Assembly (NCBI GenBank): GCA_015680685.1
Contig: MNCI01002981.1
Span: 62,001-126,000, forward strand
From: Gnetum montanum
Taxonomy: Eukaryota; Plantae; Gnetophyta
Direction: 5' to 3'
Length of the DNA stretch: 64,000 nucleotides
In this document: positions 842-54,165 of the stretch, one piece after another
Numbering within the stretch: the first letter of the stretch is position 1
Layout of the letters: the number at the start of each line of letters is the position of its first letter
The notes under the pieces: model-generated
Told to the model about the DNA's origin: nothing
The model's input: the letters and a program-made list of their open reading frames with translations, nothing else
Database searches by the model: none
Program-made: the position numbers and the translations under genes

Positions 842-1990
842 TGTGATATGTTCACTTTGTCATTCTTTTTTCACTTATTTAACAGTTAAGAGTTAATAGT
901 TTGGTTAAATTTTAATTCTTCTGCTGCACCATGATAGATTAACATGCTGCCAAAAACTTAAAAGTTTCTCAATTCATTGTCTAACTTCTCATGCTTTTTT
1001 CAATGAGAGAGATGTTGGTATGGATTCATGTTGTTTCTACATGTATAAGCCATGTTTTTTATGTTTGAGTTTAGTTATGAAGATGTAAGAGTCACTAAAA
1101 ATCACTAAGGCTAGAAGCTATGTTTCTTTGTTATGCTATGCTTCAAAGCATATGAAGAGTGCATGTCCAAAAGTGGATAGAGGGAATCAGTGGGTCTTAC
1201 TATGTAAGCATGCCAATCGTGGCAAAGATCTCCTCTCCAAAAGTATAAATAAGGGTGCACCCTCCTCATTTTGAAATGCCTATTGTAGTGTAAAGTGAAG
1301 TGAATGAAAGATCTTTCTTCCTTTCATTTGAGTATGTTCATTCAATTGTGCTTGTGCTGAACTCTCTTTAGTTTCAGCCCTTTTTCCCTTTTGTCACATT
1401 CTCACAATCATGAATTGTCATGTCAGTTAAATCATCTCAAATGGTTCAGTCTCTTACATTCTCATGAACACATTTTTGACATTGATTTTCACAAAATTTT
1501 TCTCAAGTTTCTCATAATCTGGTTCTTGCATTTTAATTTTCTCACATTCCTCTCAAATGTTTGAAGTTATTACATGCTTAATATCGTGTTTTAGTTTCAT
1601 TTGAGTATGTTCATTCAATTGTGCTTGTGCTGAACTCTCTTTAGTTTCAGCCCTTTTTCCCTTTTGTCACATTCTCACAATCATGAATTGTCATGTCAGT
1701 TAAATCATCTCAAATGGTTCAGTCTCTTACATTCTCATGAACACATTTTTGACATTGATTTTCACAAAATTTTTCTCAAGTTTCTCATAATCTGGTTCTT
1801 GCATTTTAATTTTCTCACATTCCTCTCAAATGTTTGAAGTTATTACATGCTTAATATCGTGTTTTAGTTTCATACATATGATAGTTGATAGTCTATGGAT
1901 GTTTGAAGGGTTTTATGTTTGTCTATGCAAGGAAAGATGGATTCCTTTGCTAAATTTGCTTGAATTCAAGAAGTTCAACTCACAATTAAA
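842..1990 (+). mobile_element. LTR-like sequence into which the L1 inserted (may continue at about 8135-8460)
   Basis: TATAAATA at about 1244 followed by a CT-rich R/U5-like tract. Termini and TSD are not resolved. Confidence 0.35.
1322..1873. repeat. Tandem duplication, 2 x 273 bp, TTTCAT microhomology at the junctions
   Basis: 1322-1594 is repeated at 1595-1867 and looks identical by eye. TTTCAT occurs at 1322, 1595 and 1868. Confidence 0.92.
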
Positions 1991-2417
1991 CTCTATTACA
2001 TGTTTTATTTTTTTTGGAGTAATGTTCGAGCTTATATTAATCCAAAAAAATGTGTGAACAAATGTACGTTGCGGGCCAATGCCCACCATCACCTAAGGGC
2101 CACAACCACATGCCCGTTCCATGCATGCGCACACACCATCACAGCTGCAATGCCAGCAATCCCCAGATCCAGGAAAACCAAGAGTTCAAACAAGCTTGAA
2201 AGCTAGAGACAGTATGCCCTTGTACATAGAGGGTTCGGTATTCATTCTTGTAGTTCCTCCCCTTCCCCAACACCCCCACCCCCCCCCCCCCCCCCCCCCC
2301 CAAAGCACCCCAAACGGCCACATTTTCCATCTATTAGTTTGTTGTATTTGTCATATTTTTGCCCCCTCCCCCCAGTGCCCTGAAAGGTTGTACACATTTC
2401 TCTCCTGGATGCGAGGC

Positions 2418-3377
2418 CTAGTTAGTAGGTTGATGCAACCCCTTGGCCTCAACCTTCGTCGACGTCCTTGATGTAGTCGTAGTCATTGTCAAGTGTTGTG
2501 CCACAACCCCCTGCCCCATCATGAAAAGCTGGGCCAAGCCCTCACGGTGTTCTGTGAGAACATCCTCCATCCATTGGATGTCTTGCAACCATGCCTCGTT
2601 TGCCTCTTGCCTAGCTTGTTGTCGCATCTCCTCCCACCTACGTTGCCATCTTGCGCCCTCCTCCAACATCGCCTGCTTAGTCGCAATGTGACAAGCCTCC
2701 ATTAGTGTTCTACCGCAAGACCACCCATAAGCAGGTTGCACTGGTGCCATAGCGGAAGACGAACCAAAGGCATCGATGCCATCAGATAATGACTCGTGTC
2801 AATTCGACTGCACTGCTTGGGCCACCTACCCAGAACCCCTACACCTCTGATAAAAAATAGTTGTTGCCGGGCAGGCAATGGGGGTACCCTTGCTCTATAA
2901 CACAAGAAAAACCTCGGGATGCTGCCCTAGCTGCTGCTTGTTCAATGATTCATAGAAGAACTAGGGCAAGTTCACACAGGAACCTTGTATAAGGTACTTC
3001 AAGAAAGTGAAATGCACCTCCACCAGTTTGTGGGGGTACCCAGATTGAACAAAGTACCTTTCAACCATCAACGTCGCATCTTTCCAGATGCCCTATAACC
3101 CGGAATGCCTAATGTGCCTACTGGCCATCCTTGGAACTAGCCCAGGAAAGAACTCTGTGGCATCCATCTGTGCCTTTGCCACAAGGGCCATGATTTCCCT
3201 TGCCACCTCCACCCCCAGTGCCTCCGCAATTGCTTGCATGGAGACTTCAATCCTTCTATCCTGAAACTACGTAGTCTTTCCCTCCTAGTTATCGTAAAAT
3301 TGTTGTGTGGTCAAATTGGGTTCTCCCTCTAACCGTTTGAACATTTCTGCCCATCCCATGCATTCCACAGTGCCCAT
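2418..3377 (-). pseudogene. L1 ORF3: ~319-aa protein resembling LTR-retrotransposon accessory ('env-like') proteins, with a coiled-coil-like C-terminal part
   Basis: A single frame joins ORF-track pieces 3285-3635 and 2418-2750. It has 7 internal stops (6 TAG, 1 TGA) and no frameshift. Sequence: MGTVECMGWAEMFKRLEGEPNLTTQQFYDN*EGKTT*FQDRRIEVSMQAIAEALGV...GIWKDATLMVERYF...HFTFLKYL..VNLP*FFYESLNK. Confidence 0.75.
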
Positions 3378-3403
3378 AATTTGGGCATGTTGGCGAAATC
3401 CGT

Positions 3404-6400
3404 TCACGATGGTGCAAAGAGTAGCCCTTGTGCCATGGCTACCGTTGCCTTCTGCCACAATAGGCGGGCCTCCTTGACCACCGTGGGCACCGTAGGAAGC
3501 TGCTGCCTTTGAAAAACCAGCAAGTTCCACTTCTTCCAGATGATCCACAGTGTGGCAAGTCTTCCCGAGTCCCTGTGGATCCCTGTAACTTGTGTAGACT
3601 AATCTATCTGCCACACAGCTTGTGAAAGTTGACACTTGTCCATAAAATGATTAATCATTTCTAGAGCCACATGGCAACGTGGACAGATGTCCTCAATTTG
3701 TAATCCCTACTCTTGTAACGTGGCCTTCACAGACAGCACCCGGTGCATGATAAGCCACCCAAATGCCTTAATTTTCTCTAGGAGACAACCTTTCCAAAAC
3801 GTTGCCCAACCCTCCATCGACAAATAGAAGGATTTTATCATTTCCTTTGGTTGTTGTCCCAACAAGCCCATTGGTTAGATTTTGGCCACGAACCATCACA
3901 TATTTTTCCAGAGATGAGAGCTGGCCAACGAGGACTTTTATCTACAGTATTTTCATGTTAAAATTTGCACCCATGGCACCTCTCCAGCTGTAGGGGCCAT
4001 GAACTGGTTCAATAATTGATTTAGGTTTAGAGCAACCTCATCTTCAAATCTCAATAGCCCAATACCCCCTGTCGACCTAGGTCTTGCTGTTATTGGCCAT
4101 GAGACCAAATGCATTTTTTGCCCCCCTTTTCCATCGGACCAGACAAAATGTCTCACTATTCTATCTATTTTCTGCATAATACTGACGAGCGGAGTAGCCA
4201 TATAAGTGGCAAAACGAGCAACGACCATCAAGACCACCGTTGCCAATATCATCTTGCCCTTTCGGGACAAGAATCGGCCTGTCTAGAGAGCAGTCTTGTT
4301 TTGTACATGCTCCACCAATCCTTTCCAAGCTTGCCGCCTATTCTAGTAAAAAACAGGCATACCAAGGTAAGTATCCTGGGTGTTTCCTAGCAAAATACCT
4401 AGCGTCTATATGAGCCTAGCCCTCACCATCCCATCCGTGTGAATACAGTAGATAGCTGATTTGCCCTTATTCACCTCTAGACCAACTTCGCGCTACATCC
4501 GTGTCATTGCTCGTAACAGTGCCTCAGCCTGTGGCATCGTGGCTCAAGAGAAAACCATAGTATCATTTGCATAATGTGCCACTAAGTTGTTCACCCCAGC
4601 AACCTGAAGTCCTTGAACCCCTTCCTTGTGACAATAACTTTGGAATAGATCCATAACAATAATGAAAAGGAGTGGCGACAGTGGATCCCCTTACCTTAAG
4701 CCATGCCCTGTGCCTACGAACCCACATAGCTTGCCATTGATGTCTAGAGAGTATCATCCACTGCACTGTATCTGAATACATAGGTTGACAAACTTGGTAT
4801 CAAAACCTTTCTCCACCATCACTCTCCACAGTGTTGCCGAACTGACTGTGTCATAAGCCTTAGTGATGTCAAGTTTGGTACACATTCTAGGAAGTCTAGC
4901 CACCCAGACCAAATGCAGAATCTCTTGTAATAGCAACACTTGGTCCTGTAAGAAACGTCCCTTAATAAACCCAGCCTAATGTTCCCCAACCAACTTCCCC
5001 ATAAGTGGCGTGAGACGCCCAACCAACATCTTGGAGAAAACCCGCATTAGCGTGTTGCAAACCCCAATAGGTCGAAAATGCCCCAAAGCAAAGGGATTGG
5101 GGACTTTGGGTAGGCGCACCACCCATGAACAATTTATTTCTCTCTTGACCTGCTGCCATCTGAGCATACTATTATATGCATCTAGCAAATTGGGCCCCAT
5201 GAGATCCTCATATTCTTTGAAGAATTCGGTTGGCCATCCATCAAGCCCTCAAGCCTTGTTGGCTTGCATAGATTTCAAGGCCCGCAACAGCTCCTCCCGC
5301 GAGAAAGGGTGTAACAATTGCGTATTGTCTGCTTGTGTGAGGACCCGTGGTATGTGTAGAGATATGGGATTTGTGGCCTTCCACCGCTAGATATTCCCCC
5401 AAAACTCATGCAGTGCTTCCAGCCCCCTCGCACTACTGTGTGGGCCTCCCCCACTCATGCTCTCAATGATGTCCTAGAGCTTGTTCTTTTGTGCCTGATT
5501 TTGTCTTGCCATGGCAAAGAAAAACCTGGTGTTCTTGTCCCCTTCCCTTATCCAAGTCACCCTTGAGCACTGTCTCTAATAACTCTCCTCTTCCCTGTAT
5601 AGGTCTTGTAGCTCCCAGAGAAGTTCCTACTCCTCAGTATCCTAGGCCTCCTCCATTTCCTACAGCTATTGGATTGCCCTCAGTTCCTCTTGCACTTGTT
5701 GTCGATATCCCCTGAAGCTATATCTGTCCTTCATTGTTTTGGCCTTAATAGTGTGTTTGAGAGCTCTCAAACCCCCACCGAGGAACTATCGAGGCTCTTG
5801 CGTCCCATTATAGCCTTGCCAAATAGTTGCCACCATGGGCCTGAGCCAGGCCTTAGTCAACTAGGCCTGCTCGAATCGGAACAGCTGAGGCCTCCACCTC
5901 CCTTGCGACTAAATATGATACAAAATGAATCGGTGGTCTGAGGCCTGCCACTCCTACCCCTTCACCGTGATTTGGAAGTCCAACATTAAGCCCTCACTAA
6001 CCCAGATACGGTCAATCCGAGACTGTACACAATCCAGACCCCTTCAGTGGTTACTCTAGGTAAAATTACAGCCTAGGATCTCCAGGTCGATCATTGCATA
6101 TTGCCGCAGAAACTCAATACATGCCTCAGCCCCCGGAGGATCAGTGCACTCATTACCAAATTTTTCCCAGCAATAAAGTCACTAGTTAAAATCCCCCATT
6201 ACCATCCAGCGGGCCATATTGGAGATATGCCTAGCCACCCGTTGGAGTTCCTGAACCCTTGCCTCACAATTTTGTGCCCCATAATAATTTGTAAGCCAGA
6301 TATTTCTTTGCTGCATATAAACCGTCTGACTCCAATCCGACATATCCTCCAGAGTAACCAAAACTTTAGCTAAGATGGCCAACCCCCCTGTGCGGCCCTT

Positions 6401-6577
6401 GTTGGGCACAATGTGGGCATTCCAGCCCTCCCAATTCAGCAATTGCTGTTCAGCCATTTGGACCTTTGTTTCTTGCAAGCACACTACTTCACAGCCGACC
6501 TCCCTCACCATCCTTCGTAGGGTATTTCTTTTGTATGGGGTACCCTAGCCTTAACAATTCTAGGATAAAATCTTCAT
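3404..6577 (-). pseudogene. L1 ORF2: APE endonuclease, reverse transcriptase, zf-RVT; disrupted
   Basis: APE: MKILS*NC..G, VCLQETK, WMVMGDFN. RT: FRPIGVCN, KLDITKAYDTV, GLR*GDPLSP, HYANDT. zf-RVT: KIKAFGWL..CPRC..H..C..VW and WIIWKKWN.LVF. Stop TGA at 3404-06. Confidence 0.92.
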
Positions 6578-6620
6578 GGCAAGATAACACCTATTGCTAG
6601 TATGCCTCCCACAGCGTGCG

Positions 6621-8105
6621 CTATATCCCCAAATCTAGATCCAACTGCATGGAGTTCTTGTGCATTGCCACCTTGTCTGGGCACCCAAGCTTGCTCTCCT
6701 GCCGATGCACTATGTCTCCACCCGGGCTCCTTGCTTGCTGAAGATTAATGTCTGACATCTTCGATTTAGAAGAACCCCTTCCCATAGCGATCCATTCCCC
6801 CAGCAGGGGTAGCTCCAACATGGCTCCCAGTGGCTTGGCGGCCTTGTGAATTGGTGGTGTACGGGGGGACACTGGTACCCCTGTTGCTTGTGTCCCAACC
6901 GAACTATCCCTTGCCATCCGCGATCCTTCTACTGTCTCCTCCCCCCTGAGGCAGTTGAGGGATTGGTAACTCTTCTACTGGTTTCTTTTGCTTCAAGTCC
7001 TGATCCCCTCCTTCCATAGTTGTGTGAGGTTGTTGTTGAGGGCCCTCAGAAGCCACTTGCTTCCAGATCCGGCCCTTTTGCCCAACTTTATGCCATCCTT
7101 GAGTGGCCTCCATCGGCCCTTGATTGTTCGATGCGAGGTGGCTCTTCCCACTATCCTTCCAGTTCCCCTCCAGCCTCCCCGTCAAACTTCACTTGAATCC
7201 GTTCTTCCCCTCCTACGGCATCGAAAATAATCTCTTCGACTTGTTCTGCTGATTGGATCAACCGCCACATGTAGAACTACGTGTACCCCATCCAGTCCAT
7301 GGATGCTGTAAATGCATCAAAACAGATAAACTCTTTGAAGAGACCCGCCAGAGACTTCAGGAAATCGGGTTACCAATATTCTAGTGGCAAATCCAACAAA
7401 TAGACCCAGATTGGCACATAGTCGAAGATGCACAAATCCTGGTGTGCTCTAGGTCACCAAGGTGCCAGGGCTAGGCCATGAGCACTGTAAAACCACGCCC
7501 CCCCCCNCCCTTTCCTGATCGACCAAAGTGGGGAAAATAAATAGCAAATGGTCATCCGTGAGGCTTTGAACCCTAACTATCTCCAACCCCCAGGTGATTT
7601 TGGCCCACTTGTGAATGAGTTCCATCCTCGGTTGCACACCATCAGAAATAAATTTCTTGAGTAGACTCTGCTGGAGTTCCTGCACAGTCTTCTCAGGTGG
7701 CTGCCCAACCCTAATCCGCATCACAGTCCTCTCTTTTTCGCATGCATCGAAGGTGGGCCTGCCATTTTTTGACCCAAGCAGTTGGAGCTTAGGGTCTTGT
7801 AGTATTGCATCCTTGCTTTCCTTGACCCAACATTCCTTGCCACCGCCCTCCCCATGTCCCCTTGGGGTCGCATCGACATTTCCTTCGACTCCCCCTTTTT
7901 TGAGCATCCACTCCACCCGTGCGACACTCATGCTGCTGTGCCCACCGACACTCATGCTGCTTTTTCTGTTGATACTCCCCTTGTAGTTGCCGTTGTTCCC
8001 ACCGCTCTTGCTGTGCTTGCCACCGCTCTTGCTGTGCTTGCCGCTCCCACTGTTCCTGTTGTTCCCGCAACTCCCACTATTTCCGCTGTGGCCACTGCTC
8101 CCATT
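6621..8105 (-). pseudogene. L1 ORF1 (DUF4283/RRM-like), disrupted; boundaries approximate
   Basis: Contains ELIHKWAKITWGLEIVRVQSLTDDHLLFIFPT and, after a frameshift, YVPIWVYLLDLPLEYW..FLKSLAGLF, both typical of plant L1 ORF1. The N-terminus is a Q/W/E/R-rich repeat. Confidence 0.8.
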
Positions 8106-11100
8106 TTCCCCAACTTTTCTCTATTACATGTTTTGTGTCTCAATTTGTTTCAGAATTTGAAGGTTTGTGAGTTATGCTTTTGGGGTTCTTGCTAATTTAT
8201 CCAAGTTTGGCTCAATTCCATCTCATGTTTGACAAATTGAACCTTATTTGAGCATTTAAAGCTTGATTGATGAAGGATGCATGATTTTTTATCTAGTTTT
8301 GCAAATGTGAAGGGAAATCTACACTCATCCAATGAAATTTCTCATGTTTTTCATGCATTTTGTACAACAGGGCATTGTTTTCTTAATTTGTCATTTCAAT
8401 TGATGTAATTGTACTTGTATGTGTCTTCAAACTACTGAACAGAGCTTTAGACATCTTACTTGTGTGTGTGCTTAACTCTTTTTTGGGCCCAATTTGTTTG
8501 ATTTTTTCCATTCCAAAATTATTGAACTCTGTAATTTTCTCAGGACTACAACTTCACTGTGACTTGTGGTTAACTTAGAGGTTAGACCATGGCTCGTGGT
8601 CCATCCCATGAACTGTGGTTGAAAGCATTGGTAACTCATTTTCATTTTATTAACTGGTTTTGGGTCAACATGACTTGAACATGACCCATGGTCACTATCA
8701 TCATGACAACTTCATGACTCATGGTCTACATAGAATTCACCACAACTAAAGTCCTCAACCGGGGATCAACTTTTTGGCTGAATTTCAGATTTTTAATTTC
8801 AGATCCAAGGAGTAGAGATAGACTGTATCCCTGCTGCATGCTCTGACACAATGCAATATCTTGTTGCCAACACATGAGATCACCAACTTCGGATAAAGTG
8901 ATGGGAGGCAGTCATTATTTTAGTTATGTGCATGCCAACACGAACGTGGAGACACAAAATGCCCATGACAGGCTAAAAATAGCAACAAACTCATGTACCC
9001 AATGCACATGACTTCCAAAACTACCCAGCATGCCAACAAATGAAATATCCAGTTGTCCAAGCCAACAGAACATACACACCTTACCAATTGATATGCTTCA
9101 TAAGTTAAGAACAAATACCTCTATTGCTATGGAAATTTATGTTGGCAAAAGGAAATGTAACCTTAGGGTTAAGTTGATGTGGGCCCTTAAAAGATTCTTG
9201 CCTCTTTCTGCAATTTTCCAACTTTAAGATTCTTGCCTATCTTCCCCATTTTCTAAGCAGCCAAACAGTCTCCAACGGTCCAAAATAGTTCCAACATCAG
9301 TTAAGTGCAGTTCTAAACCTACCGAGAACCGTCATTGAAAATAGTCAAAAGTAGACCTAGATCAGCCAAGAAACATAGCTAAAGTTTCTACTAGGTACAT
9401 AAAAGAAAAGCCATCTTGCTTTTCTTTTTACCCTTTCTCTCACTCCTTAAACTAGCATTATCTCCTCTACTTGGAGAAAAGGTGTCTGCAAGAGCAAAAC
9501 CCCCACTTTATAGGCTCAAAGAGACCCCAACCTTTTGGGCAAACACTTACACACCAAACTTTGTTCATTCGATAAAGACTCAACAAGCCATCTCCAAAGT
9601 ATCCCTTTTTAAATTCATGATATAATGATAATTTGACTTGGATAGTCTAGATCTTAAATGCATGGAACATTGGTTGATAGTTTTTGAAACTAAAACTGAT
9701 ATCTTATTACATCTGTATGGACCTGAAGGATCTATTAGACAAATTAACTTGTGCAAAATACATCAATAGCAATAAATCTCAAGTACAGTAGATGCATCCA
9801 ATATTCATGTAGCTTGAATACATCTCTTATATAATTCCTTAGAACTAACATTGATAGCTTGAATAACTCATGCAAAGATTGACTAGAGAACTGTCATTTT
9901 TTTTTGAAGAAATTTTTTCTGCAACATTGTCATAATATATATTACTGATCTTCTACTACCTGTAGTAAACTCAATCAGCATGTTCTATCTTCATGCTGCT
10001 TATTGGTCCATCTTCTAATTTGAACTTAAAGATGATGTGATCTCATTCTTCAGTGCTTTCATGGACATCGGAATTGTTGCATGGAGATATTTTGTTTCAT
10101 CATGCCTACCACTTAAAATGTTTTGCTAGTAAAATTGAAGCTTTTGTTTTTTTCTTTTGTATTTGTGTCTTCTTTTGTTATCTTTTTAAAACTTTTTCTA
10201 TAACAAGTTTCCAAGCTTGTTCTAAATTTGTTAATACATCAAAATTATAAATACCCCATTTTTGGAGCCAAAATTGTTGAGATTTTTAGATGATGTCTCT
10301 TAAAATCTTATTGCTATTTTTATCATTCAAATAGATTATTAAGAACTGATACATTGCTTCAGCCATCTAATAAAAGTATTGCATATAGCAATTTAGTTTT
10401 CACCTTGAATTCATCTTCAAGAGTGTCAAAACAAATATTAAATGAGCCCTTTTTTTTTCTTTTCTGCCATTAATGTGAAATAGAGCTTAAACACACAAGT
10501 TACAAATAATCATGAGTATTGGAATAAACACCATTTAGCATTACCTAGCTCCCTGACGTATTTTTCTTATTCAATGCCAACTTGTAGTTCTCTTTTTGAC
10601 TTGCTTTAATCACTATGAGGATAAGAGGATTTCTAATTTATTTTTGACATTCCGGTATTTTTCACATTTTTTATGTTTCAACTACAAAAAGCATTCATTT
10701 AGAATCTCTTAACCATCCAATGTTTCGTGCATATCAAGACAATTTTAACAAGCATATCGATGCATGGTTACATTTATAAAATTAATATTTTAATCAAACG
10801 TTAAAAAATCTAAACACTTATTAAGACTTTTTCAAACATTAAACATTAAACATTAAAATTTTATAAACCAAGATTCCAACCAAGAAATTATTTATTGATT
10901 TGCACGCTGCATGCAATATTGAACTAGGCCTCCAAATTAAGTGGAATTGGATAAATTTGGATTTTGAGCAAATATTTTAATTAACATGTTTAATTAAAAT
11001 TTCTAGAAAAACATAAAAAATAATCTTTGATCAAGCTTCCATAAATTCTCACCTATTTTTCTATGTAATTTTAATCATTAAATCTAATAAATGTTATTAG

Positions 11101-11948: not shown

Positions 11949-12058
11949 GCAATGCTTGCTTCCCTCGCGGAAATCAGCAGTAGGAGGTTGCTATATGGAC
12001 CAGATGGTCAAAATGGGATAATGCAAGTGTCATTTCCAACTTCTAATTGGCTTTACAG
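11949..12058 (+). CDS. Internal coding exon of a plant SLT (lytic transglycosylase/lysozyme-like) domain protein
   Basis: Acceptor ccAG at 11947-48 and donor GTATGT at 12059. 110 nt, phase 0 to 2. Encodes AMLASLAEISSRRLLYGPDGQNGIMQVSFPTSNWLY(R), with the SLT G-I/L-M-Q motif. Upstream exons were not found in the window. Confidence 0.88.
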
Positions 12059-13098
12059 GTATGTCGCTTTGCGTTGCATACAACCATGTATGAATAGTTG
12101 GTAATTATTTCAGATTGCTTTTCTAAAATTCTATAATTGAATTTCATAATAGTTTTCTTTTACATAAGTTAAATGAAATCAATTTCATGTTTGTTTCTGT
12201 TGGATAAATAACAGGATTTTATTATGAATGTTAAGAATTGATCACTGTACAGCCTTTGAAAATAAGAACATGCTTTTGTTGTTTTAAAATTTGACCAACT
12301 AATCTCCTGAGATAGAAATATGACAGAAATTTATGTGATTTAGATAAGTCGAGTTTTGGTATAAAGGTAGTGTTAAAAATAGTAAGTGATGGATCAGAAC
12401 CATACCGTGCGAAGTCATATACAGTTAATGTTTGATGATGGCTAATATCAAGACAAAGTATTTTGTCAAGTACCAGACTGTCAGTACGAGTCTTTACTAA
12501 GGAACATGACCTGTGAACCAACGAGTACAATGTTTCAAATACCTTTACATTTGGGAAATCAGCATGGATGAGTGTAATGAAGAGATGTGAAAAATCATGG
12601 AATCATAACAATATGATAAAGGTCAGGTTGGATGTAAGAAGCTGAAGGCATGGAGCTGCAAAGAGCTAGTTATATGTGTGATATATCAGACAAGGTTTAT
12701 CTGAATGTGAAGTTCATTAAGAAAAGAAACAACATTTGAAGATGACATGTTATAGGAGGTCGAACCATAAGAAGTTAACATTGGAGTGCAGAAGATAACA
12801 GGGCTTTGTGTTGAAGAAGAATTCAGTAGGTTAAGCTACAAGTTGTATCAAGTTTCTTACCAATGAAGGTTTGATATTTGCCATATACAGTGAACCAGGT
12901 TCATGTTATAATCGGAATGATAGTTTCAATAAAACAGTCAATAGATCAGATCTGAAAATACATTAGAGAAGCTCTGGAGAAATTATTAGAACATTGTAAA
13001 TCTGAATAAAATGTTAAAGGCAGAAAATATCACACTGTAGCAGATCAAATAAACGCTGTAAATCACTGAAAAAACCGCTGTAAACTCTAGCAAATGTT

Positions 13099-13527
13099 TG
13101 TTGCAAAAACAGAATAAAATAGCACAAGAACACATAGATTTACATGGTTCGGGCCTCTTTTACCCTACCTCCACGACAATGCTGATTTGCTTCTATATAG
13201 CTCAAATCTTAAGGACACAAGCTGTCCTTATAGCTTTCCCAAGCACCCAATCTGTTACTCCAACTGATCTCAGATCTACATAAAAAAAAGACTCTCATCT
13301 CCAAGGTAAAACCTTAATACAATGCTTCCACCTCAAAAACACACACACTTAAAGGCTACCCCAAGCCTTCTATTTATAATGAAACATTAGGACCAAACCC
13401 CGATCCTCACATATGTGGGATAAAACACATCCCCACATAAACATCACTTTACAAACTGACCCCTTTTAAAACCATAAAAGGAAATACAACAAATAATACT
13501 AATGTATTTGTCTTCATTTTTCCAACA
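13099..13527 (-). repeat. Copia 3' LTR (429 bp); PPT adjacent at 13528-13539
   Basis: Inverted termini TGTTG...CAACA, preceded on the minus strand by AAGGGGGAGTT. Minus-strand TATAAATA at about 13372-79. Confidence 0.85.
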
Positions 13528-15954
13528 AACTCCCCCTTGAAGACAAATCCAACCAGCCTTCAAGAGATGTGCACTTTTGATTAAGCTTCAGTTATTCCAA
13601 GCTTCTTCCTATAGAAAATGTGTTTTTCAGCTATCATTGGTTTTGTTAAAGTATCAACAATGTTAAGCTTTGTATGGACCTTCTAAACATGCACTGAGCC
13701 ATCCTCTATGATTTCTCTTATGAAGTGAAACTGGATATCTATATGTTTCGTCTTGGCATAAAAGGTAGAATTCTTTGCAAGATGGATTGTACTCAAACTG
13801 TCACAAAACACAACATACCTTTGTTGTTTTAGTCTAAGAGATTGCAAGAATCTCTTCATCCATAACATTTCCTTGCATGCTTCGAGGTCTACATATTCTA
13901 ATTTGGTTGTAGATGAAGTTACCAATGGTTGTAGACGTGACAACCAACTCACTGTTGCACGACCAAAAATAAATGTGGACCTTGTAGTGGAACGTCTTGT
14001 ATCATGATCAGCAGCAAAGTTTGCATCTACAAAACCTTCAATGTGTAGATTAGCATCTCCAAAACACAAGCAATGTGTTTTTGTGCCCTTTAAATATTTT
14101 AGAATCCATTTAACAGCCAGCCAATGATTCCACCCAAAGTTGGTCATAAATCTACTAACTACTCCAACAGTATAAGCAATATCAGGATGTGTACAAACCA
14201 TAGAATACATCAATGACCCAACAGCAGAGGTATATGGAACGTTTTTCACCTTTTCAAAATCCTCCTTTGATAAATTAAATTGTGTTGAAAGAGGTATACT
14301 TATGGGTTTTGCATCCTCCATGTTGAAACATTTTCGAACCTTTTCAATGTAATCTTCTTGACTCAATCACAATTTCTTCCTTTTTCTGTCCTTGCAAGTA
14401 TTCATTCCAAGAATTTTCTTTGCCTATCCCAAATCCTTCATAGCAATTCTTTGCCCATTTCCAGTTTTAGATGTTTTATTTCTGCCATGTCATTTCCAGC
14501 AATTAACATATCATCAACATACAACAACAACTTACCTGAAACATCTCCAGAAAAATACACATAGTGGTCCAGATTGTTTCTCTAATAATTCAGCTTCTTC
14601 ATGAAGGTATCAAACCTTTTATACCACTGCGTAGGGGCTTGTTTCAGACCATATAAGCTCTTTCTTAGTCTGCAAACCAGACCTGAACCTTGCTGTTTTT
14701 CTTACCCTTTTGGTTGTTTCACTTATATTTTCTCCTCCAAATCTCCATGGAAGAATGCTATTTTTATGTCAAGTTGTTCCAATTCTACGTCCATATAGGC
14801 CACCAAAGATAGCACTAAACGTATAGAAGAGTGTTTTACCACTGGAGAAAAAATTTCTTGAAAGTCTATGCCTAGTTTCTGTGCATAGCCTTTCACCACC
14901 AACCTGGCCTTGAAACATTTTTTCCCATTGGCCTCTGTTTTAATTCTGTATAGCCACTTGCACTCCAAGGGTTTTCTCCCTTTTGGCAACTAAACTAGCT
15001 TCCACATTTTGTTCTGTTGGAGTGATTCCCATTCATCATTCATAGTTGCCTTCCACTTTGTAGCATTAGTACATGTCATGGCTTCCTTCATTGTTTCTGG
15101 TTCACCACTATCACTGTAAATTACATAATTTAGCGAGGGAGAGTACCTGTTAGGAGGTCTAGTAGCTCTTGTTGACCTTCTAACCCAATGAGACACATCT
15201 GCAGCTTGTTGTTTATCATCTTCTTACTTATTTCCTTGTCCTCCATTTTCTCCTTGCTATCCTAAGTTCTCAGCTTGCTACCATGTAATTTCATCATGTT
15301 GTCCAATGTTTCCAGATTTGGAAAATCCATCATTTTCAACTTCTTTAGTCACCCTAAAAGGAGTTCTCATGCTATCTGAGCCATTGTTGGCCTTGTCTTT
15401 GGTTTGCAGCTCACTAAACATCACGTTTTCTTTGAATTTAACATTCCTTGATCTCACTACACATTTCAATTCAGGATCCCAAAGTCTGAATTCTAAATCA
15501 CGTTCTCCATATCCAACAAACAAGTAACATTTAGCCTTGTCTTGCAACTTAGTTTTGTTCTCCTTTGGAATATGCATAAATGCCTCACATCCAAAAACTC
15601 TTAAATGACTCTCCAAACAACTTCTGGAATAGCATTATCAATTAAAAAATGTGGAGACCTGTTCACCAAATATGTTATAGTCTTAACTACCTCTCACCAA
15701 AACACCTTAGGTAGGCTAGCACCTGAAACAATTGTTTTAGCACGATTTGACAATGTTTTGTTGCATCTTTTAGCAACTCCATTTTCCTGTGGTGTACTCG
15801 GAGGGGTACGAATGTGCCTAATTCCTTTGCTATTGCAGAAATTAGCAAATACTTTGGAAGTGTACTCCCCACCATTATCAATTTGCAAACATTTTATTTT
15901 CAGACCTGTTTCATTTTCTACTCTTGCAACAAATTTTTTGAAAATTGAAAACAA
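13099..15954 (-). mobile_element. 5'-truncated Ty1/copia (integrase, RT, RNase H, PPT, 3' LTR) in a host intron
   Basis: INT: DNGGEY, TPQENGVA, HLRVFGC. RT: CKWLYRIK, KARLVVKGY, LDIKIAFFHGDLEE. RNase H: YTSAVGSLMY, FCDS, TKHIDIQFHFIRE. Domain order is copia-type. Confidence 0.93.
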
Positions 15955-16042
15955 GTAAATCTCTGTGTTCTTGTGCTTTTTCATTTTCGTGGAGGTAGGG
16001 TTTAGGGTTCACTTCTATTAAGGGCCTAAAAAACGTTAATAC

Positions 16043-24088: not shown

Positions 24089-27000
24089 TGATGAGAGGTG
24101 GAGCAATCCCAACACTACCATACAAGTCACAAGTGCTCATGCATGACTAGGTTGTAATTTGCGAATGGACAATATCATTATGCTAGTGATTGATGTTAAG
24201 TTTGAGATTGTTGTCTTTCCACTTCGAGTTAGTGAAGTTCAAGTGTATGGTTTAACTCTTAGTGAGGCATATGATTGGTTGATGTTGTAAGGCTCTTAAT
24301 GCTTTTAATGGTAAACATAATTGAAGATAAAGGTAAAATTCTAAGTCTAGTTAACTAGGGAAACATAAAACCTATCTTAGCCTAGTGTGATGGATATCTA
24401 GTCCTGGTCTACTGTACATGTCCTGGACTCATGTAGTTATCATTGGAATTACCAAGTGGTATTACTACTGAGTGAATTAAGCAATGCCACTACTGAGTTA
24501 CCAAATAACTACACTTAGCACTCGAAACCAGTTGTAATTATTCAGCTTAGTAAGGACATATAAAATAAAGTTCTTGAAACATAAAGGATTAACTAAGAAA
24601 ACAAGAAAATTATTCTAAGTAAACATAGAAAACTAAGTCGATGCAGCAATGATGAAAGGCAATCTTGATCTTTATTGCTAGTCATGAACTATGTTCAAGT
24701 ACAATTCACTTAAATAAAGATTCTAGACAATTGTTCAATACCACACTACAAGCATTCACTCTATTGCTAAAACTATGAAAATAAATTGCAATAATCTAGT
24801 TAAGGATTGGAATGAAAAGTTATGAATTGTATGTCCAAGTGTTAGTATTTATAGCTCTAGACACATCCCAAGACATTGTATCAACAATGACATAGCATGT
24901 ACCATGACATCTTTGCTATGATATCATTAATACAATATCGCAATGCAACAAAAATTAACTTTATCATACCACCATGATTCATTGAAAACTCATCCTCAAG
25001 TTAAAACAAAATGAAGATAGAGTCTCTTACAAAATTGGAAGGTAGATTTGACTTAACATACCGTACTAACTATTTATATGACTTAGAATGCAGCACTGGT
25101 GTTTTTACAAAATGACATAGGTATATGACAAGAAAAAAAACAAAATTTAAAGTTGCTCAATGTAGATCATGTTCCAAGCACTGGATGCTCTTCCATATGC
25201 TTTTTTCCTTTGTCATTAGGCTTTTGAAATTTATATTGATTTAGGAGCACTTGAAGCTTCTCTTCTTTTGCCTCGAGTCATGTAGCATCCATGCTTGTTG
25301 AGCAATGTTAGATGGAGTGAGTACATCCCATGGGCATGGTAGCTGCATAAACATTTTGTTGGCCTTCATGTACTAGACCACAAACTGTCATCTTTCCTCT
25401 TCAAATGCTTTGGTTGTCTTTTTGAGTTCCTAATAATTTGACATGCGATGCACTAGGTTTATTACTACATCTTTCTACCCATGGTAGCTTTCCTTGATAA
25501 TTTCTATTTTAAAGTTTGCCACATGTAGCTTCTATAATGCATCTTTCCTATCAGCAAACTCTCTTTCATACATGACATACATAGTCACTACCTACTACTC
25601 CAATTCATTTTGGGGCTTGCCTACTATTAACATGGCTAGATTAGCATACTAGAGGTTTGCTAATCACATATACTCTATTAAGTCTTCAATCTGCATGTGC
25701 TTGTTTTTTACTTCTACTTCGTGGACATGGGCTAAACTATCAAAGATGGGTTGCCAATTTGGATTTTGCGCAAAAAGAGAACTGATCTTGGCCTTTGCCA
25801 TCTGGATCTCTTTTTCATTGATTTGCTTGTACATACCCACTTGATTTTTGAAATGCTCTTTGATGCTTTGTGCTTCTTAGCCTTATTTTTCCACATGCTT
25901 ATTTTGATTTCTGAATTCTGATGGATGGCGTAGACTTCTTTCATTGATAAGGTTCTATTCTTGTGAGCCAACCAACTCATGTCTTGGTTTGCTCTAGCTA
26001 GTTGTTCTCTGAGTTGTTGGATGCTTTACTCAAGAACATTCTTTTGCTTTTCAATATTGGTCAACCAAGCATTATCAGTAGCAAGTTGTTTATTCTCCTC
26101 TTGTAAGCCTATGAGTGCTTTGGCATGTGCATACATTTGAGCCTCTGCCATTGATGCATCACATACTTTCTTCTCATTTTCTCTTTGCATCTTCATGTTA
26201 TGGTCAATAAGCTATCTTATATAATCAGTTTTAAATTTTTCAAGTTGATTAGGTGTTATGAATTATGTGGGGTCTTTTCTTTTAGCTTTTAGGGTGGCTA
26301 ACTCCTCTTGCAATTATTGCACCTTGTTTTCTACATGCTTGGCCTTGGTTTTAGCATGACCAACTTTTCTTTTGTGGCTATTAGATTAGATTGGACTATA
26401 ATGATATTGCTTGGGATATCAAAAATATTTTACATTACTTGGCCCTTCTACAATAGTCTGTCTAAAATCTCTTCATGCTCCATAAGTGTCATTGAGGTTT
26501 TGGCAAGTATTTAAGCATCCTATGCTCCAGAGATATCAGCTGGTGGCACAACAGGAATGTTAAAAGATTCCTTAATGTGATCATTGATGACCTCTATGAC
26601 TCTTACTGCATCTTGATGTTGCATGATCATAACTGTGGCACCTGCACCAATTTCAAGAATAACTTGGAATTATATAGCATTCTTGAAAATTTGTTATGTT
26701 CAATCTTCCTCTTCTCTTGCTTGCAATGAAAATTTTCCAGTGGCTAGTTCTGTGGATACTATGGGCCTTGCAAATATCTTCTGTACTTTGTACAATTTTC
26801 CCCTTTTCTTCTTCCCCAACTTATTGTTTCTATGATTTGTTGTAGATGGCTAATGGATGGTTGATAATCTTGTGGCCATAGTAGTGGTACTTCTTACTAT
26901 TGTTGTTGTTGTTGTTGTTGCTCATCTTTGGGTTGGCTACTAGGTCCTACCTATTGCTGCTAACTAGTAGTGGGAATGTTACCAACAGGAGTGGAATTTG

Positions 27001-27691
27001 CAACTTCCTCTGTGCCTACTAATTTTTCTACTTGATCCTTCTTTGATGGCACTAGCTTGAACATCTTTGCATAGGAAGCATTTTGATCCTTCCTTGGGAC
27101 ATCATTGATATATCCCAAGTTCCTAGCTTGCTTGCACAGCTTCCTGATGAGGCAAGGGAATGAAAGTGTTAGCTTTCCTACCTTCTTCTCTTTGAACCAC
27201 CTCTGGATTTCAAGGAAGAATAGAAGGGCAATGTTAGCATTGACTTTTTCCATCAGGGTTGCGCTTCCTTTGGTGACATATGTAGATATCCTATTGAGCC
27301 TTTTTTTTGGAAACAAGTGATAGGTTCTAATCTTGAAGTATATTTTCTCCTCAACCATGAGCTTTCTATAATCTTTATCTTCTTTTCCAGATTCTCTATG
27401 CAACCATAGCCTCTTAGCATTAGTATTTGATCTTGTTGAGATTTGTGTCATATTTTCCCCTTCATTTGGGATGTTGAGAATCTTTGCAATTGCTTCTACT
27501 AAGTAAGGCATAGAGACTCCTTCAATTTTGACTATAGCATCTACTTTCTTATTTTGCCAAAATCGGTATGTTTCCCCTAGATACCACTTACCATTGTTAA
27601 ATAGTGCAGGCCATAAAGGAGACACTTGGAGTTGCGTCATTATAGCTTTTGGAGTAAACTCCATGTAAGGACCAAAATTCAAATCCATGAT

Positions 27692-30600
27692 TGATGAGTG
27701 GCGAGGTACCCCTACACTCAACCATACGAAACGAGCGTAGCACGCGTGATTCGGTCGAACTTCGCAGACATAATGCCTAAACGCCCCATGGAACACTTGG
27801 GGTTAATCATTTGTTGTCTTCCCAGACTTACTTGTTGCTGTCACAGTGTATGGTTAAGTAAGTCCTAGGTATATGATTTTTTTTGGTCTTTTATGGTTTT
27901 ATGTCTTCTATGCTAAGAGTGAAAGGTTGAGAAAGCTAACTAACTCTAACTAAGGACTAAGTCTAAATTAACTAGCATCAACATCTGTTCCCACTTACCG
28001 TACACACCCTGAACTATGCAACTGTAGCTACCAAACACTAATCATTACTGGGATCACCACACGTAACGCACGTGCTCGAAGTGGTCATACTGAGGCACTT
28101 AACTAGCCTNNNNNNNNNNNNNNNNNNNNNNNNNNNNNNNNNNNNNGGAGTGATCAAATTGCTAGAGTTTCCCTACTTTAAGCCTAGGATGAGAAATGAG
28201 GGGAGTGCTGCCTCTTATTTATAGATCTAGAGACGGACTGCGATATTGCGTATGCGATATCGCAGGGGACAATGCGATATCGCGTACGCGATATCGCAGT
28301 GCATGCGATGTCGTGTCTCATCATACCCCCATGACTGAATGGAAACTCATCCTTGAGTTCCTTACAATAATATCAGGTAGGTATGGAATTATTAAGGGGA
28401 ATGGAACTAATGGGATAACATGTGAACGGATCATCATTACAAGACTTGAAAAAGTTGGTGTTCATGACAACAAGGGTGAACACCTTATTACAATGACATT
28501 AGGCCTTTGTTGACAATTGAGAAAGAGAGAGAGAAAGAAGTGTTGCTGTTGCCAACGCTAAGATTGCACCTTTGTTGTCCATCCGTAAGCACGTCATCGA
28601 TCTTGCTCCTTGCATAGCTACTTCAACGCTACTCCATTCCAAGTGTTTGCTCCAAATCCAATCCATTGTTGCATGATCACCATCTGCACACACAACACAG
28701 TCTTGTATTAGCAAGGGTAGATGAATCATCATGTAATTAATACCTTGCTGCAGTGAAAGTCCATTGGCTAGGTTGTGGTATGGCTGATATGGATCAGGAG
28801 ATATATTAATGATGACTACCGAAGGTGTACAGGTTAAGAAGAAAATAAAGAAATTTAGGGCTAGGAGAAAATAAAAAAAATCAGGCCCCGTACCCCCATG
28901 ACTAATCGCGAACCTCTGGTAGCATTAGAATAGAGAAGGAAAAGGAGTAAGAAAAATAGATAAAAAGGGACAACTATAGCATCGATGAAAGGGATGTCAA
29001 GATGGTAATGAACAAAATAAAATTAATTGCAAAATGTCAGGGGAAAGAAGTTAACGGATGCTCCAAATAGGAATGTCAGTGGGTCCTCCCCAAAGCAGGC
29101 TCATGCCCTTAATGCCCTGACAAACCCACATTCAAAGAGTTCGTAGGCTTTGGGAATGTTATTTGGAACAAGAGTTAAAGTCTTAACCGTAAGAATTTAC
29201 CAAAAAGAAAACAATGCATCAACCAAAATATATACACTAATGATACAACCGGCAATGAGGNNNNNNNNNNNNNNNNNNNNNNNNNNNNNNNNNNNNNNNN
29301 NNNNNNNNNNNNNNNNNNNNNNNNNNNNNNNNNNNNNNNNNNNNNNNNNNNNNNNNNNNNNNNNNNNNNNNNNNNNNNNNNNNNNNNNNNNNNNNNNNNN
29401 NNNNNNNNNNNNNNCAATAAAAATAAGAAGTCTTTGCATGGTGTGGTTCTCACGCATAAAAACACAAAACACACAAAAAAAACGAAGTGAGAATTCAAAA
29501 CACACCCCTTAGACGAAATAAACTTGGGCTACAAGCACTGGTTATGGAACCAAAANGTGAGAACCACACCATGCAAAGACTTCTTATTTTTATTGTCTCA
29601 GCTTCCAATAATTGGGTAACATTGGAATGGCAAGAAAAATCAAGAAGAAACATTCAAGCACCCAAGAAAATGACCAACACAAAAGTATCAAATTCTCTTG
29701 AAGTCACACCCTTTTCAATCCATGAGTCCTTCCTTAGTTTGAGAAATACTCAGTCATTGATTTGTTTAAGTTCTTATTAAGAAGGGGACTGTACATTTCC
29801 AAGTCGAGAGAAACCATAGAAATTGGTGGATGGATGGATGAAGTGATCTCATTGCCTGCCATATCAAAAGAAACATACCTTAGTATCAACATTGTGACTG
29901 AAAGGTAAAAACCAAACATTAGCAATTAATATGAAAATAGTTCATACCAGCATTCTGAACACTTATTATGGGACAAACTTACATGGTGGATCACACACAC
30001 ACACACACACAAAATGGAAAACTATAACGATGTTGTAAAACAAAAACTAAAAAAGTTAAAGAAATTTGTAAAACAAAAATGTGTAAAACAAAAACNGCTC
30101 CTTCGAGTAGCTGTCAACCATGGGGTGTCTACTACTTCTTGTGTGGTTGCTACATACAAGCATCTTTATTGCAAAGTTTCAAGGGCACACCTGTCACATG
30201 GAGGCATTTCCTCCATGTCATCACCCGATGAATCACTATATGTGATGCATGGAACTTTCCTCTTCTCGATCTTTCCACATATGTTTATCTTAGATATTTC
30301 CAAGGAAAAATCGCAGATCCTAAGGCATGCATCTATTGCACTAAGCCATGTCCTTCCCATTATAATCGAGAAGTCCCCTTCATTGTTGTTCACTTCAATC
30401 ACCAGAAAATTAGCTGGATAAGACCAACCACACATAGTGGTAATGATGTCCTCCACCAATCCCAAGGGAATGGTGATGGACTGGTCTGCCAACTCTAGTT
30501 AAATGTTGCTCTTCTTAAGTTGAGGTAGGTTCTAGGCGTGATACATCTCTCGTGAAATTAAGTTAACTCCGGAACCTGAGTCAAGAAGAGCGCTATGTGG

Positions 30601-39720: not shown

Positions 39721-40871
39721 CTCTTGGTGAAAGATGAATGTAAAATTAGAGTAGTAAAGATCATTGTGAGCAATGAGATTCTTGTTTGCATAGGCATACT
39801 CTAGTCTTTATCATCATTTGTTCTATCATTGTTCCTTCATATCTCTTTGGCATGTGATAATTTTTCCTTAGTTAAAGCCATGTTATAAGTGTGGTGTTGG
39901 GTTAAGTGTGTGTTATTAGAATTATTTAAAGGTTATAAAAATTGACTTTATGGTTCCTAATACAAAAAACTTTGTAAGATTAATTACTTAGCACATATTA
40001 ACACATCCTTGGAAATGGTACCAATGATGAGTGATGGAGCAATCTCAACACTCTACCATGTAAGTCACAAGTGCTCATGCATGAGCAGATCATAATCTCT
40101 AGTGATTGATGTTAAGTTCAAGATCGCTATCTTCCTACTTTGAGTTAGTGAAGTTCGAGTGTATGGTTTAACTCTTAGTAAGGCATATCATTGGTTGATG
40201 CTGTAAGGCTCTTAATGCTTCTAATGGTAAACATGATTGAAGATAAAGGTAAAATTCTAAGTCTAGTTAATAAGAAAACATAAATCTATCTTAGCTTAGT
40301 ATAGATATCCAATCTTGGTCTACTATACATGCCTTGGATTCATGTAATTATCACTAAGATTACCAAGTGGTATTCCTATTGAGTGAATCAAGAAACACCA
40401 CTATTGGGTTACAAGATAACTATAGTTAGCACTTGAGATGAGTTGTATCCATTCTGCTTACTAATGACATGTAAAATAAAGTGCTTGAAATGTAAAGGAT
40501 TAAGTAAGCATAAAAAACTAAGTGGATGTTGCAATGATGAAAAACAATCTTGATCTTTATTGCTAGTCATGAATTGTGTCTAAGTAGAATTCACTCAGAT
40601 AAAGATTTTGAACAACTACTCAACACAATAATATGGGCATTCACTTTATCACTAAAACTATGAAAACAAATTGCAACAATCTAGCTAAGGGTTGGAATGA
40701 AAAGTTATAAATTGTGTGCCCAAGTGCTAGTATTTTATAGGGCTACACACATCTCAAGACATGATATCAATGATAACATAACATGTACCACAATTTCATA
40801 TCTATGACTTTGTTGCTACAATATTGTAGATACAATATCGTAGTGCAACCAAAATTGAATTTATCAATAGC

Positions 40872-51333: not shown

Positions 51334-54165
51334 ATGGCACCAAGATTGAAATGCCCATAGGATGGAGGACTATCCTAAATAAGGGACAAGTAGTCCAAAT
51401 TTGAAAGGGACCAACAAGAACAACCTCAAGAGTAGGTAGTAGAAACCCATGCAACAAGACCTCTTCGGAAGGAGCCCAAAGTGGAATTTGTCCATTAGAT
51501 TCCCCAAGCTAAAATAGAGTGATACCACTGGAATGAGGCACTAGGACCAAAGCCAAGCCTTAAGATCAAGTTGATAGATGTATGCCTTAGGGAAATCTAG
51601 TCTAGGGAAATTCAATGCTCAATTCTTCAGGAACTAAACTTTGGAACCTTCCTAAACTTTGCCCTAGAAGATGTTAAAACCCAACTTCAAAGCTCTCCCA
51701 TGTATCTCATCATAACTTCTAGTGGGGAGTGATACATGGAAGAGACCTATCTCTTTAGGAATAATACAGCTAGATGCCACTGTGAAGATCAAGGACATAA
51801 GTATGTCCTACTTGGTGAAGGCCATCTCTTAGGCCCTTGGCTTACTTGAAACCAGGACAAACCTAGTAAAGATATCAAAATAAGCTAACCTAGAGGTCAA
51901 AAAGGAGTAGGTCTAATGGTGTTATGGAGTGGACCACAAAGAGTATGGCAAACTCACCATGATGGAATGCATGTATTTCAAGATAGTGGCCTACCACCTC
52001 AATCCAATGATGAGGCGTAGCAAGGTGACAACCTTTTCTACCTATGCATGTGTCACTTTAAGCAAAAAATTTTCCATCAACCTCCCACAGTTGATTTATT
52101 TGGAGATAGAGAAGTGGTTAAAAAGAAAATGAATGTGAGAGGAAGGCACTTCCCTTTTTGTGACTAATCAAAAAATTGTGCAAAAGGGGAGGGATAACCC
52201 ACTACTCCAATGATACATTAAGACATGCTCCTACCGCCTTTTGGGTGAAAATGATGAAGGATAAGTTCCTTGTTGTAACCAAGGAAGAGGAGTAGCCACC
52301 ACCACCACCCACTCAAGAGATAATGCTAGAGGCACATGCTACCATGAAGTTCATGAAAAAGCTCCAAGAATAACTATTGTAGTAGCAGCAAGTTGTTCTG
52401 AGTGGTGACTCATCTATCTACTGACCAACCATAAGCCATATAAATGAGGTAACGCATACAATAAGCTGGTTAAAGGATATGATACTAACTTTCTCTGCCT
52501 AACGAATGTTAACATCCCTACCCTCAAATCCTAGTGCCTAAGAGATAAGGCTATCCATTCTAGGACAATAGTAATTTCTAGAAATATTTGGAAATGTAGC
52601 TACCTTCTTAATGCACCTAGATGAGGAAGGTGGGACAATTGTTCTAGTGATGCAACACCAAAGGCAGGAAATAGTGGTTGAGGTAATGGTAGATCAAGTG
52701 GGTGAAGCCTTGAATGTTGCTATGACATTTTTGCCTAATATTACTACACTTAGAGAAGTGTAGACATTTGTAGGAGTGGCAAGTGGAAGGTTCAATGTAG
52801 CCTAGCATGAAGAGTTGCTAGAATGACTAGTGAAAACTCAACAACCAATTTCGGAGGTCTTTGACCTTTTGAATGACATCACTGCTACCCAGTTGACATT
52901 GTTGGAGGTAAGTGGCAAGTGCATCATCAAAGAGGCTCAACTTGAAACAACCAAATCTAAGAATTAGTGCTTGGTTGTAGAAGTTAGAGCCTGCCTTGCT
53001 GATCCCATGGTACTTAGCCAAGCAATGATAGGGGACGAAGCTATTTAATAGCTTCAGTTAAAACTTCAAGAGGCTAAGTATGCAAATAAGTTGGTAATCT
53101 TTGACTAGTCCTTAGCTAATGCCACCATTTACAACATTTAGAAGGACTTGTTGGAGGTTCACTAGGAAAATGTAAATCTAACCAAGAACAATCATTACCT
53201 ACATACTGTTGAGCTTCAAAAGGAGTAAATGGTTGAATAAATGAGATAGCAACAAGAGCAACTTGCCAAGGTGATAATGGACCTAAGGAGGTTGACAATA
53301 GAGAATCATAATCTCTTGATGGAGAAGGTTCATTTCCTTAACCAAAGGTTTGTAATTGAAATTTCCACCTGGAAGAATGAGGCCCTTAAATTTGAAAGGA
53401 TTAAAAACCATTACAAGGACCATGTCGACTTGTAAAAGGAGATCAATGAAAAATAAATCAAACTGGTGAAGGCAAAGGTGCATGAGGTCCTTTAGCAGCT
53501 CTAACAAGAAGGTGATGTATGGTAGCCTATCTTTGATGGGCTAAATGCATACAACAAGGTAGAAATTCACCTCAAGAAGTTGTAAATCAAGAAGATGACT
53601 AAATACATGGAGCTCACCAACCTTTGCTATGCAAACTTGGTAATGTTGACTATCGAAGATTGAGGTTAGATTTGGAAAAGGTGGTAACTAGCTTGTACCT
53701 ATTGTACATGGCCGAGTTCAAGCACCATAAGGAGAGAAAAAAAACTTAAAATGGAAAATTCTAAACTCAATGTTCTCAAGCAACTCTTTACTAATTGAAT
53801 ATTAGTAGCTAAGAACCTAACCTAAAGGATGAATTACTACCAAGAGTTACAAAACACTATCAAGGCATTTGATGTTGAATGAAAGTAGTTTGTAGCCTAG
53901 TTTGTCAATGTGAAGGAGTTGTTCCCTGCAATGCAAAGATATTCCTATAAGGATCCACATTGGTGATGTCACATGGACCATGTACTACTCCTACAGTAAG
54001 GAGGAGAAGATGAAAGCATTTCTGGATGCTTTCCATCTTCCACCAGTAGTAGCAGTTATAGCTAAATAGCCAGAACCATAGCCTCAACCACAATAGTTGT
54101 GTGCACTAGAGGCAAGAGAAGAACCTTTAGCAACTCAAGAACCTCTGCTACCTAGGACAATCTAA
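51334..54165 (+). pseudogene. Element C env-like accessory ORF
   Basis: ATG directly after tatAG. NFGTFLNF..KTQLQ.SP, YFKIVAYHL.P and INLPQLIYLEIEKW are homologous to the element A ORF, and the length is similar (~2.8 kb). Confidence 0.8.

Follow-up and report, generated by a model that had tools for sequence, protein, structure and literature searches.

The 64,000-nucleotide stretch of Gnetum montanum DNA analysed here (contig MNCI01002981.1, positions 62,001 to 126,000; hereafter the window) raises the question of whether a LINE has taken up an accessory gene of the kind carried by LTR retrotransposons. An initial annotation read a minus-strand peptide at 3377–2898 as a separate 'ORF3' of a LINE and likened it to the 'env-like' ORFs of two further elements in the window, A and C. 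The quoted peptides are indeed present: the LINE peptide with four internal TAG stops, the element A peptide in a minus-strand ORF at 26960–27802, and the element C motif at 52076 on the plus strand. The reading that we favour, with a probability of about 0.72, is that the locus is a decayed copy of a multi-copy L1 family whose ORF2, in most of the other copies, continues in frame into a domain of the Transposase_32/ATHILA ORF-1 superfamily. The domain was likely exchanged with another class of transposon, and its predicted role is that of an accessory module that binds chromatin.

The host LINE

The peptide lies inside a transposed unit, a decayed but full-length plant L1 LINE that occupies 2007–8118 on the minus strand. 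The unit is bounded by a perfect 16-bp target-site duplication, with the 3′ copy at 1991–2006 and the 5′ copy at 8119–8134 (100% identity), and in contigs of all four runs compared, which carry four species labels, position 1990 is joined to 8119 with 16 letters in common, an empty-site-type joint. The poly(A) tail, eight T on the plus strand at 2008–2015, sits just inside the duplication, and a G-rich tract at 2273–2301, read from the sequence, falls in the 3′ untranslated region, where a comparable tract is also present in mammalian L1s. ORF1 is decayed and frameshifted near 7507, with approximate ends at 6600 and 8100, and retains a DUF4283 match at 7286–7504 (E = 3.3e-9). ORF2 starts with an ATG at 6577 and encodes an apurinic-type endonuclease (5933–6577; PF03372, E = 6.6e-10), a reverse transcriptase (4358–5086; PF00078, E = 7.7e-28) and a zf-RVT zinc-binding domain (3611–3814; PF13966, E = 2.1e-11), all on the minus strand. 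The best 120 ORF2 homologues in a protein database search have the L1-type domain set, the closest of them being just 24–31% identical. The combination of a DUF4283 ORF1, an endonuclease, reverse transcriptase and zf-RVT in ORF2, the duplication and the poly(A) tail identifies the element as a plant L1 LINE.

At 80% likeness, the entire LINE is covered at tens of times the depth of its right flank in the runs of four species labels, and the depth over the peptide region equals that over ORF2, the depths being those of contigs from sequencing runs and not copy numbers. The insertion site itself (1930–2006 and 8119–8220) is repeated host sequence, and other contigs show several distinct joints from 1990–2010 to 8119–8203. 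TAG accounts for 21 of the 32 stops in the ORF2 frame (3400–6547) and for six of the seven in the frame of the peptide, an excess that would be expected from deamination of methylated cytosines outside CpG. The stretch of ORF2 upstream of zf-RVT (about 3820–3960) looks much shorter than its counterpart in typical plant L1s, which may be a trait of the family or reflect a deletion in the window copy.

Two further features lie outside the LINE. A perfect tandem duplication of 273 bp at 1322–1873, over which depth at 1467–1733 is below that on both sides in four of four runs, may have arisen very recently or may be an error of the assembly. On the minus strand, at about 12000–16000, lies a decayed Ty1/copia pol that matches RVT_2 (E = 5.5e-57), the integrase core and an SH3-like domain.

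The peptide as the C-terminal domain of ORF2

The frame of the quoted peptide extends to 2418 and contains seven internal stops in all. Within it we place a domain at 2934–3420 on the minus strand, followed in the same frame by a C-terminal tail (2418–2933) made up of a linker and a segment rich in Q, E, R and A that is probably helical; the tail has no Pfam or homologue match except for a single unrelated one due to chance. The first residues of the domain sit in the ORF2 frame, upstream of 3368, and in the window copy two lesions separate the rest from ORF2: a TGA at 3404–3406, the apparent ORF2 stop, and a one-base frameshift at 3367–3368.

Taken at face value, the window copy would fit a separate ORF3 that follows ORF2 and has a translation start of its own, such as a Met shortly ahead of the domain. 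The frame does differ past the apparent stop, there are Mets in the ORF2 frame just ahead of the domain, and the closest homologues are, at the loci inspected, stand-alone ORFs with their own Met. In most other copies, however, neither lesion is present, and the RNA reads lack both as well. The extra base that restores the frame at 3367/3368 is present in contigs of X1, X3, X6, X7 and X8, and the insertion appears among the differences listed in four of four runs compared at 80% likeness. In X1 the contigs with the extra base (3367–3371) reach depths of 37 and 15 against 63.1 just beyond the site, and in X6 they reach 68 against 91.4; the remainder would correspond to approximately one or two single-copy depths. 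Depth at 3367 itself is higher (140 in X1 and 391 in X6) because many contigs are clipped at 3368; among the listed loose ends at this position, from three contigs of X1, six contigs of X6 and seven RNA reads of X14, three of three rows start with the extra base. The frameshift is thus likely to be private to the window copy.

The stop at 3404–3406 is a Trp codon in most other copies, the letter at 3404 that gives Trp accounting for 80.3 of 92.4 depth in X1, 211.8 of 239.8 in X6 and two of two RNA reads. The stop just downstream of zf-RVT (3601) is likewise a sense codon in most of the depth, and that at 2895–2897 is a Trp codon in most of it (175.5 of 209.7 at 2896 in X6); taken together, the stops at 3404, 3601, 3286 and 2896 are sense in 73–88% of X6 depth. 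At the TAA at 3938–3940, before the zinc finger, the middle letter differs in 93% of the depth, and the third letter is not among the 40 best-supported rows. Seven of the ten differences listed at 3370–3441 fall at third positions of the ORF2 frame. A distant subfamily clipped at 3359 shows the same join, with ANLWAVVEQ running directly into MGW (hand translation). The junction evidence comes from short contigs and clipped ends; among the listed contigs none spans the whole LINE, and no intact copy was seen.

Since the stop and the frameshift are missing from most other copies, we conclude that the peptide is not a separate ORF3, an arrangement to which we give only a slim chance, but the C-terminal domain of ORF2, in frame with it. 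The assignment of the peptide to the LINE holds, as the domain is integral to the LINE family, both within the 16-bp duplication and across an in-frame junction. The ORF2 of the family would be approximately 1,390 codons long, in the order endonuclease, reverse transcriptase, zinc finger, new domain and charged tail, and the new domain occupies the slot where many plant L1s have RNase H. Neither ORF2 nor the three frames of 1900–3700 gave a Pfam match to RNase H; RNase H is listed for 30 of the 120 other L1 ORF2 proteins, and the new domain for none of them.

Superfamily membership of the domain

The initial annotation had placed the peptide with Transposase_32 and the Athila accessory domains. 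No Pfam family matched the domain at E ≤ 1, so that the assignment stands at the level of a superfamily and not as a direct match. A phmmer search of 1.84 billion proteins returned three matches; P0127 (4e-7) and P0128 (2.3e-5) are real, each 27% identical to the domain over approximately 140 residues and nearly gap-free, and the third, P0129, was dropped as an unrelated repeat protein. P0127 and P0128 seeded a family of 72 proteins, from which a profile was built with 40 of the best-scoring members, leaving the window sequence out. The domain scores 61.2 bits against this profile, the best of 500 shuffled sequences (420 of which gave a score) reaching 8.2, and profile–profile alignment of the domain with the family gives an HH probability of 97.7%.

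The family in turn leads to Transposase_32. Sixteen of the 40 members match PF20167 at E ≤ 0.1 (best 3.1e-10), with none reaching the 45-bit Pfam gathering score (best homologue 40.6 bits). P0128 lies at 0.92 to both the Transposase_32 and the ATHILA ORF-1 clusters by Atlas features, and its Atlas model superimposes on the Transposase_32 cluster with TM 0.71/0.70 over 145 residues and on the ATHILA cluster with TM 0.67/0.77 over 134 residues, where features and predicted structure count as one source and not two. By this transitive route through intermediate homologues, the domain is indirectly linked to the Transposase_32/ATHILA ORF-1 superfamily, as judged by sequence and profile comparison, and we regard the ORF2 architecture together with this membership as highly probable.

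Several other searches gave nothing further. AlphaFold models of the domain and of P0130 are of low confidence (pLDDT 55.5 and 52.7), and fold searches with them gave no match at E ≤ 0.001 (best Z 5.3), a result that counts neither for nor against a shared fold. A word-indexed search with the 320-residue read-through (0 of 530 candidates), a metagenome scan with a three-row alignment (0 of 256) and a viral scan (0 of 60) did not recover the domain, a PDB sequence search gave one match at chance level (E = 0.024), and neither the domain nor its 40 homologues matched PF10536 or DUF1985 in Pfam.

The term 'env-like' invites the reading that the domain has an envelope-like or membrane role, and in Athila-type elements a sense ORF located 3′ of pol often receives this name (PMC7264820). 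For the LINE domain the label does not fit: the highest 19-residue hydropathy in domain plus tail is 1.39, and none of domain plus tail, the element A ORF and two homologues contains a transmembrane-like segment (maxima 0.63–1.39). Fusion to a LINE ORF2 would also better fit a nuclear role, and we consider a membrane function very improbable.

Relation to elements A and C

The accessory ORF of element A (26960–27802, minus strand) matches PF20167 with E = 2.2e-8 and 34.6 bits, below the 45-bit cut-off, and lies at 0.90 to a Transposase_32 cluster by Atlas features, which supports, again through profile matches, its membership in the same superfamily as the LINE domain. Element C carries a broken accessory ORF (51619–52195, plus strand) that has no Pfam match and is 38% identical to that of A (E = 1e-25); reverse transcriptase and RNase H Pfam matches upstream of it mark element C as gypsy-type. 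Long direct repeats at 24183–24850 and 40099–40735, approximately 15.9 kb apart and 80–92% identical, are possibly the LTRs of element A. Translations show gag/protease-like motifs by eye, no reverse transcriptase was noticed, and Pfam returned nothing for three short ORFs.

The parallel drawn between the LINE peptide and these two ORFs is partly borne out. A profile of A and C aligns with the domain-family profile with a score of 28.0, the maximum of 60 column shuffles being 19.7, so the shared register is real. The likeness is nevertheless weak: this alignment has a probability of 13%, BLAST of the LINE peptide against A and C is not significant (best E = 1.6), and tblastn gives no match to either. 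On the profile that scores the LINE domain at 61 bits, A and C reach just 10.0 and 0.3 bits, and given these scores neither is likely to be the direct donor.

Origin of the domain

A scan yielded 11 short loci with domain homologues, none of which has a LINE ORF2 match or a tblastx match to the LTR elements of the window; the closest homologues show no LTR or pol context within their short contigs. In the five loci that were translated, the sequence ahead of the domain is stop-rich and is not a zinc finger, and wherever a start is visible the domain has its own Met. Two stretches in different records, L010:2433–2981 and L011:2557–3105, hold the same divergent, broken family member in AT-rich sequence, 30% identical to P0130. 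A phylogeny was built from 15 rows without a root. The domain forms a long branch (2.46) on it, a grouping with A and C is compatible with the data but not established (p-AU 0.29), and the tree does not point to a donor lineage.

These results can be read in two ways. The carriers described in the literature are Athila-type LTR elements: 16% of Athila elements have PF03078 (PMC6317226), and an Athila ORF of sunflower carries PF20167 (PMC11728184). An LTR donor is therefore the simplest reading. We put it at roughly even odds. The fusion could also be real and the domain have come from a DNA transposon or a host gene instead of an LTR element, or it could have begun as an old LINE module and passed from there to LTR elements. 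This would agree with the failure of the tree to place the domain, with the 11 loci that match neither a LINE ORF2 nor the LTR elements of the window, and with reports that accessory folds move between hosts and transposons (PMC13547354). Against it stand the published Athila-type carriers, the relative carried by a gypsy-type element in the window itself, and the lack of the domain in all 120 other L1 ORF2 proteins. We regard a non-LTR donor as possible, if on the doubtful side. The domain was likely exchanged with another class of transposon, in either direction.

Maintenance, decay and transcription

A fused domain need not be functional, and the 3′ end of the LINE could instead have gained a fragment of another transposon through template switching or read-through, and carry it as a passenger with no function. 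Part of the evidence would fit this: the 34 differences listed in the domain frame split 12/11/11 over the codon positions, with no third-position excess, although this count comes from the 40 best-supported rows per comparison and is dominated by decay. Stops are frequent in many copies, and depth falls over the tail (2268–2800). A C-to-T change at 3170 that would create a stop is found in 129.9 of 263.1 depth in X6 and in five of 11 RNA reads, and the stop at 3093–3095 is lost in just 43–66% of DNA depth. A stop-making change in approximately half of the depth is what frequent mutation of CAG codons in a family with many dead copies would produce.

Other observations do not fit a functionless passenger. 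The domain is in frame with ORF2, is present in the runs of four species labels, and aligns nearly without gaps over 140 residues with its nearest outside homologue in spite of only about 27% identity. Loose ends of divergent subfamilies, in four hand translations, stay in frame and keep residue type through conservative changes (ANLWAVVEQ ahead of MGW, as above; IEVTVQTLVA versus IEVSMQAIAE; QGVWREVAI versus xGIWKDATL; LKHLWQGSP versus LKYLIQGSC), and depth peaks over the domain motifs (2802–3068 and 3290–3360) as it does over the endonuclease and reverse transcriptase. The conserved frame and the peaks suggest selection between subfamilies, and we consider a passenger origin improbable.

The poly(A) run X14 contains 31 RNA reads on 3080–3480, none of them at 95% likeness or above, which indicates low-level transcription of other copies. 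RNA run X11 yielded no reads in the 2% of it that was covered, a sample too small to weigh. The first mates of X14 fall on both strands and do not settle the strand of transcription.

Possible role of the fused domain

In the nucleus, the ORF2 protein of an L1 associates with the RNA that encodes it and reverse-transcribes this RNA at a nick in the chromosome. By analogy with this general L1 biology, a domain fused to the C-terminal end would reach the target DNA together with the reverse transcriptase, in the position that RNase H occupies in Ta11-type L1s. There it may bind DNA or chromatin, as an oligomer assembled through the helical tail, and help the LINE to insert into, or to stay active in, methylated chromatin, in the way that VANC and plant mobile domain proteins act for other transposons. 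The Athila domain and VANC have both been predicted to form coiled-coil pentamers (PMC13547354). We offer a DNA- or chromatin-binding function as a tentative assignment, and an RNA-binding or particle-scaffolding role is the main functional alternative. In its most specific version, the proposal is that a plant L1 lineage took over the accessory gene of an Athila-type LTR element, that this gene became joined to the reverse transcriptase in the RNase H slot, and that each new insertion thereby receives, in cis, a module for chromatin targeting or anti-silencing; we consider this version unlikely.

If it were true, a module would have passed from LTR elements to LINEs, and the 'env-like' Athila domain, long unexplained, would work in the nucleus. 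Many plant LTR elements carry the Athila/Transposase_32 domain, which is often labelled env-like and has no known function. Its in-frame, transcribed fusion to a LINE ORF2 across subfamilies and species makes a function in particles or membranes less plausible and one at RNA, DNA or chromatin more so. The fusion is also a further instance of retrotransposon classes exchanging modules, and a defined domain is now available for DNA-binding and silencing tests.

Comparison with known systems

Foreign domains at the end of a LINE ORF2 are already known: plant and oomycete LINEs can carry RNase H there, and insect R1 elements a helicase of viral origin. We found no earlier description of a LINE with a Transposase_32/ATHILA-like domain in the literature searched, though subscription journals, Repbase or supplements may hold one.

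VANC (DUF1985) and plant mobile domain proteins are transposon-borne chromatin factors (bioRxiv 10.1101/2024.09.27.615353; PMC13547354) and serve only as a functional model for the LINE domain, to which Pfam and fold searches, the latter with poor models, revealed no sequence or fold link. The domain's relatives by superfamily are the Transposase_32 (PF20167) and ATHILA ORF-1 (PF03078) ORFs of Ty3/gypsy elements (PMC11728184, PMC6317226), which have the same layout of a domain followed by a charged tail. The cases described there are stand-alone extra ORFs of LTR elements, whereas the window domain is fused to a non-LTR ORF2 and lacks a direct Pfam match.

In element architecture, the closest counterparts are the Ta11-type plant L1s with an archaeal-type RNase H (PMC5348765), which share with the window LINE a DUF4283 ORF1, an ORF2 of endonuclease, reverse transcriptase and zinc finger, and, past the cysteine motif, a domain acquired at the C-terminus of ORF2. 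As described, they carry RNase H at that point, whereas the window family has a Transposase_32/ATHILA-like domain and no RNase H match. Insect R1 LINEs differ from the window LINE in clade, kingdom and domain, but they too bear a domain from a foreign mobile element, a plant-virus SF1 helicase, at the C-terminus of ORF2, for which an anti-silencing role has been proposed (PMC4686597).
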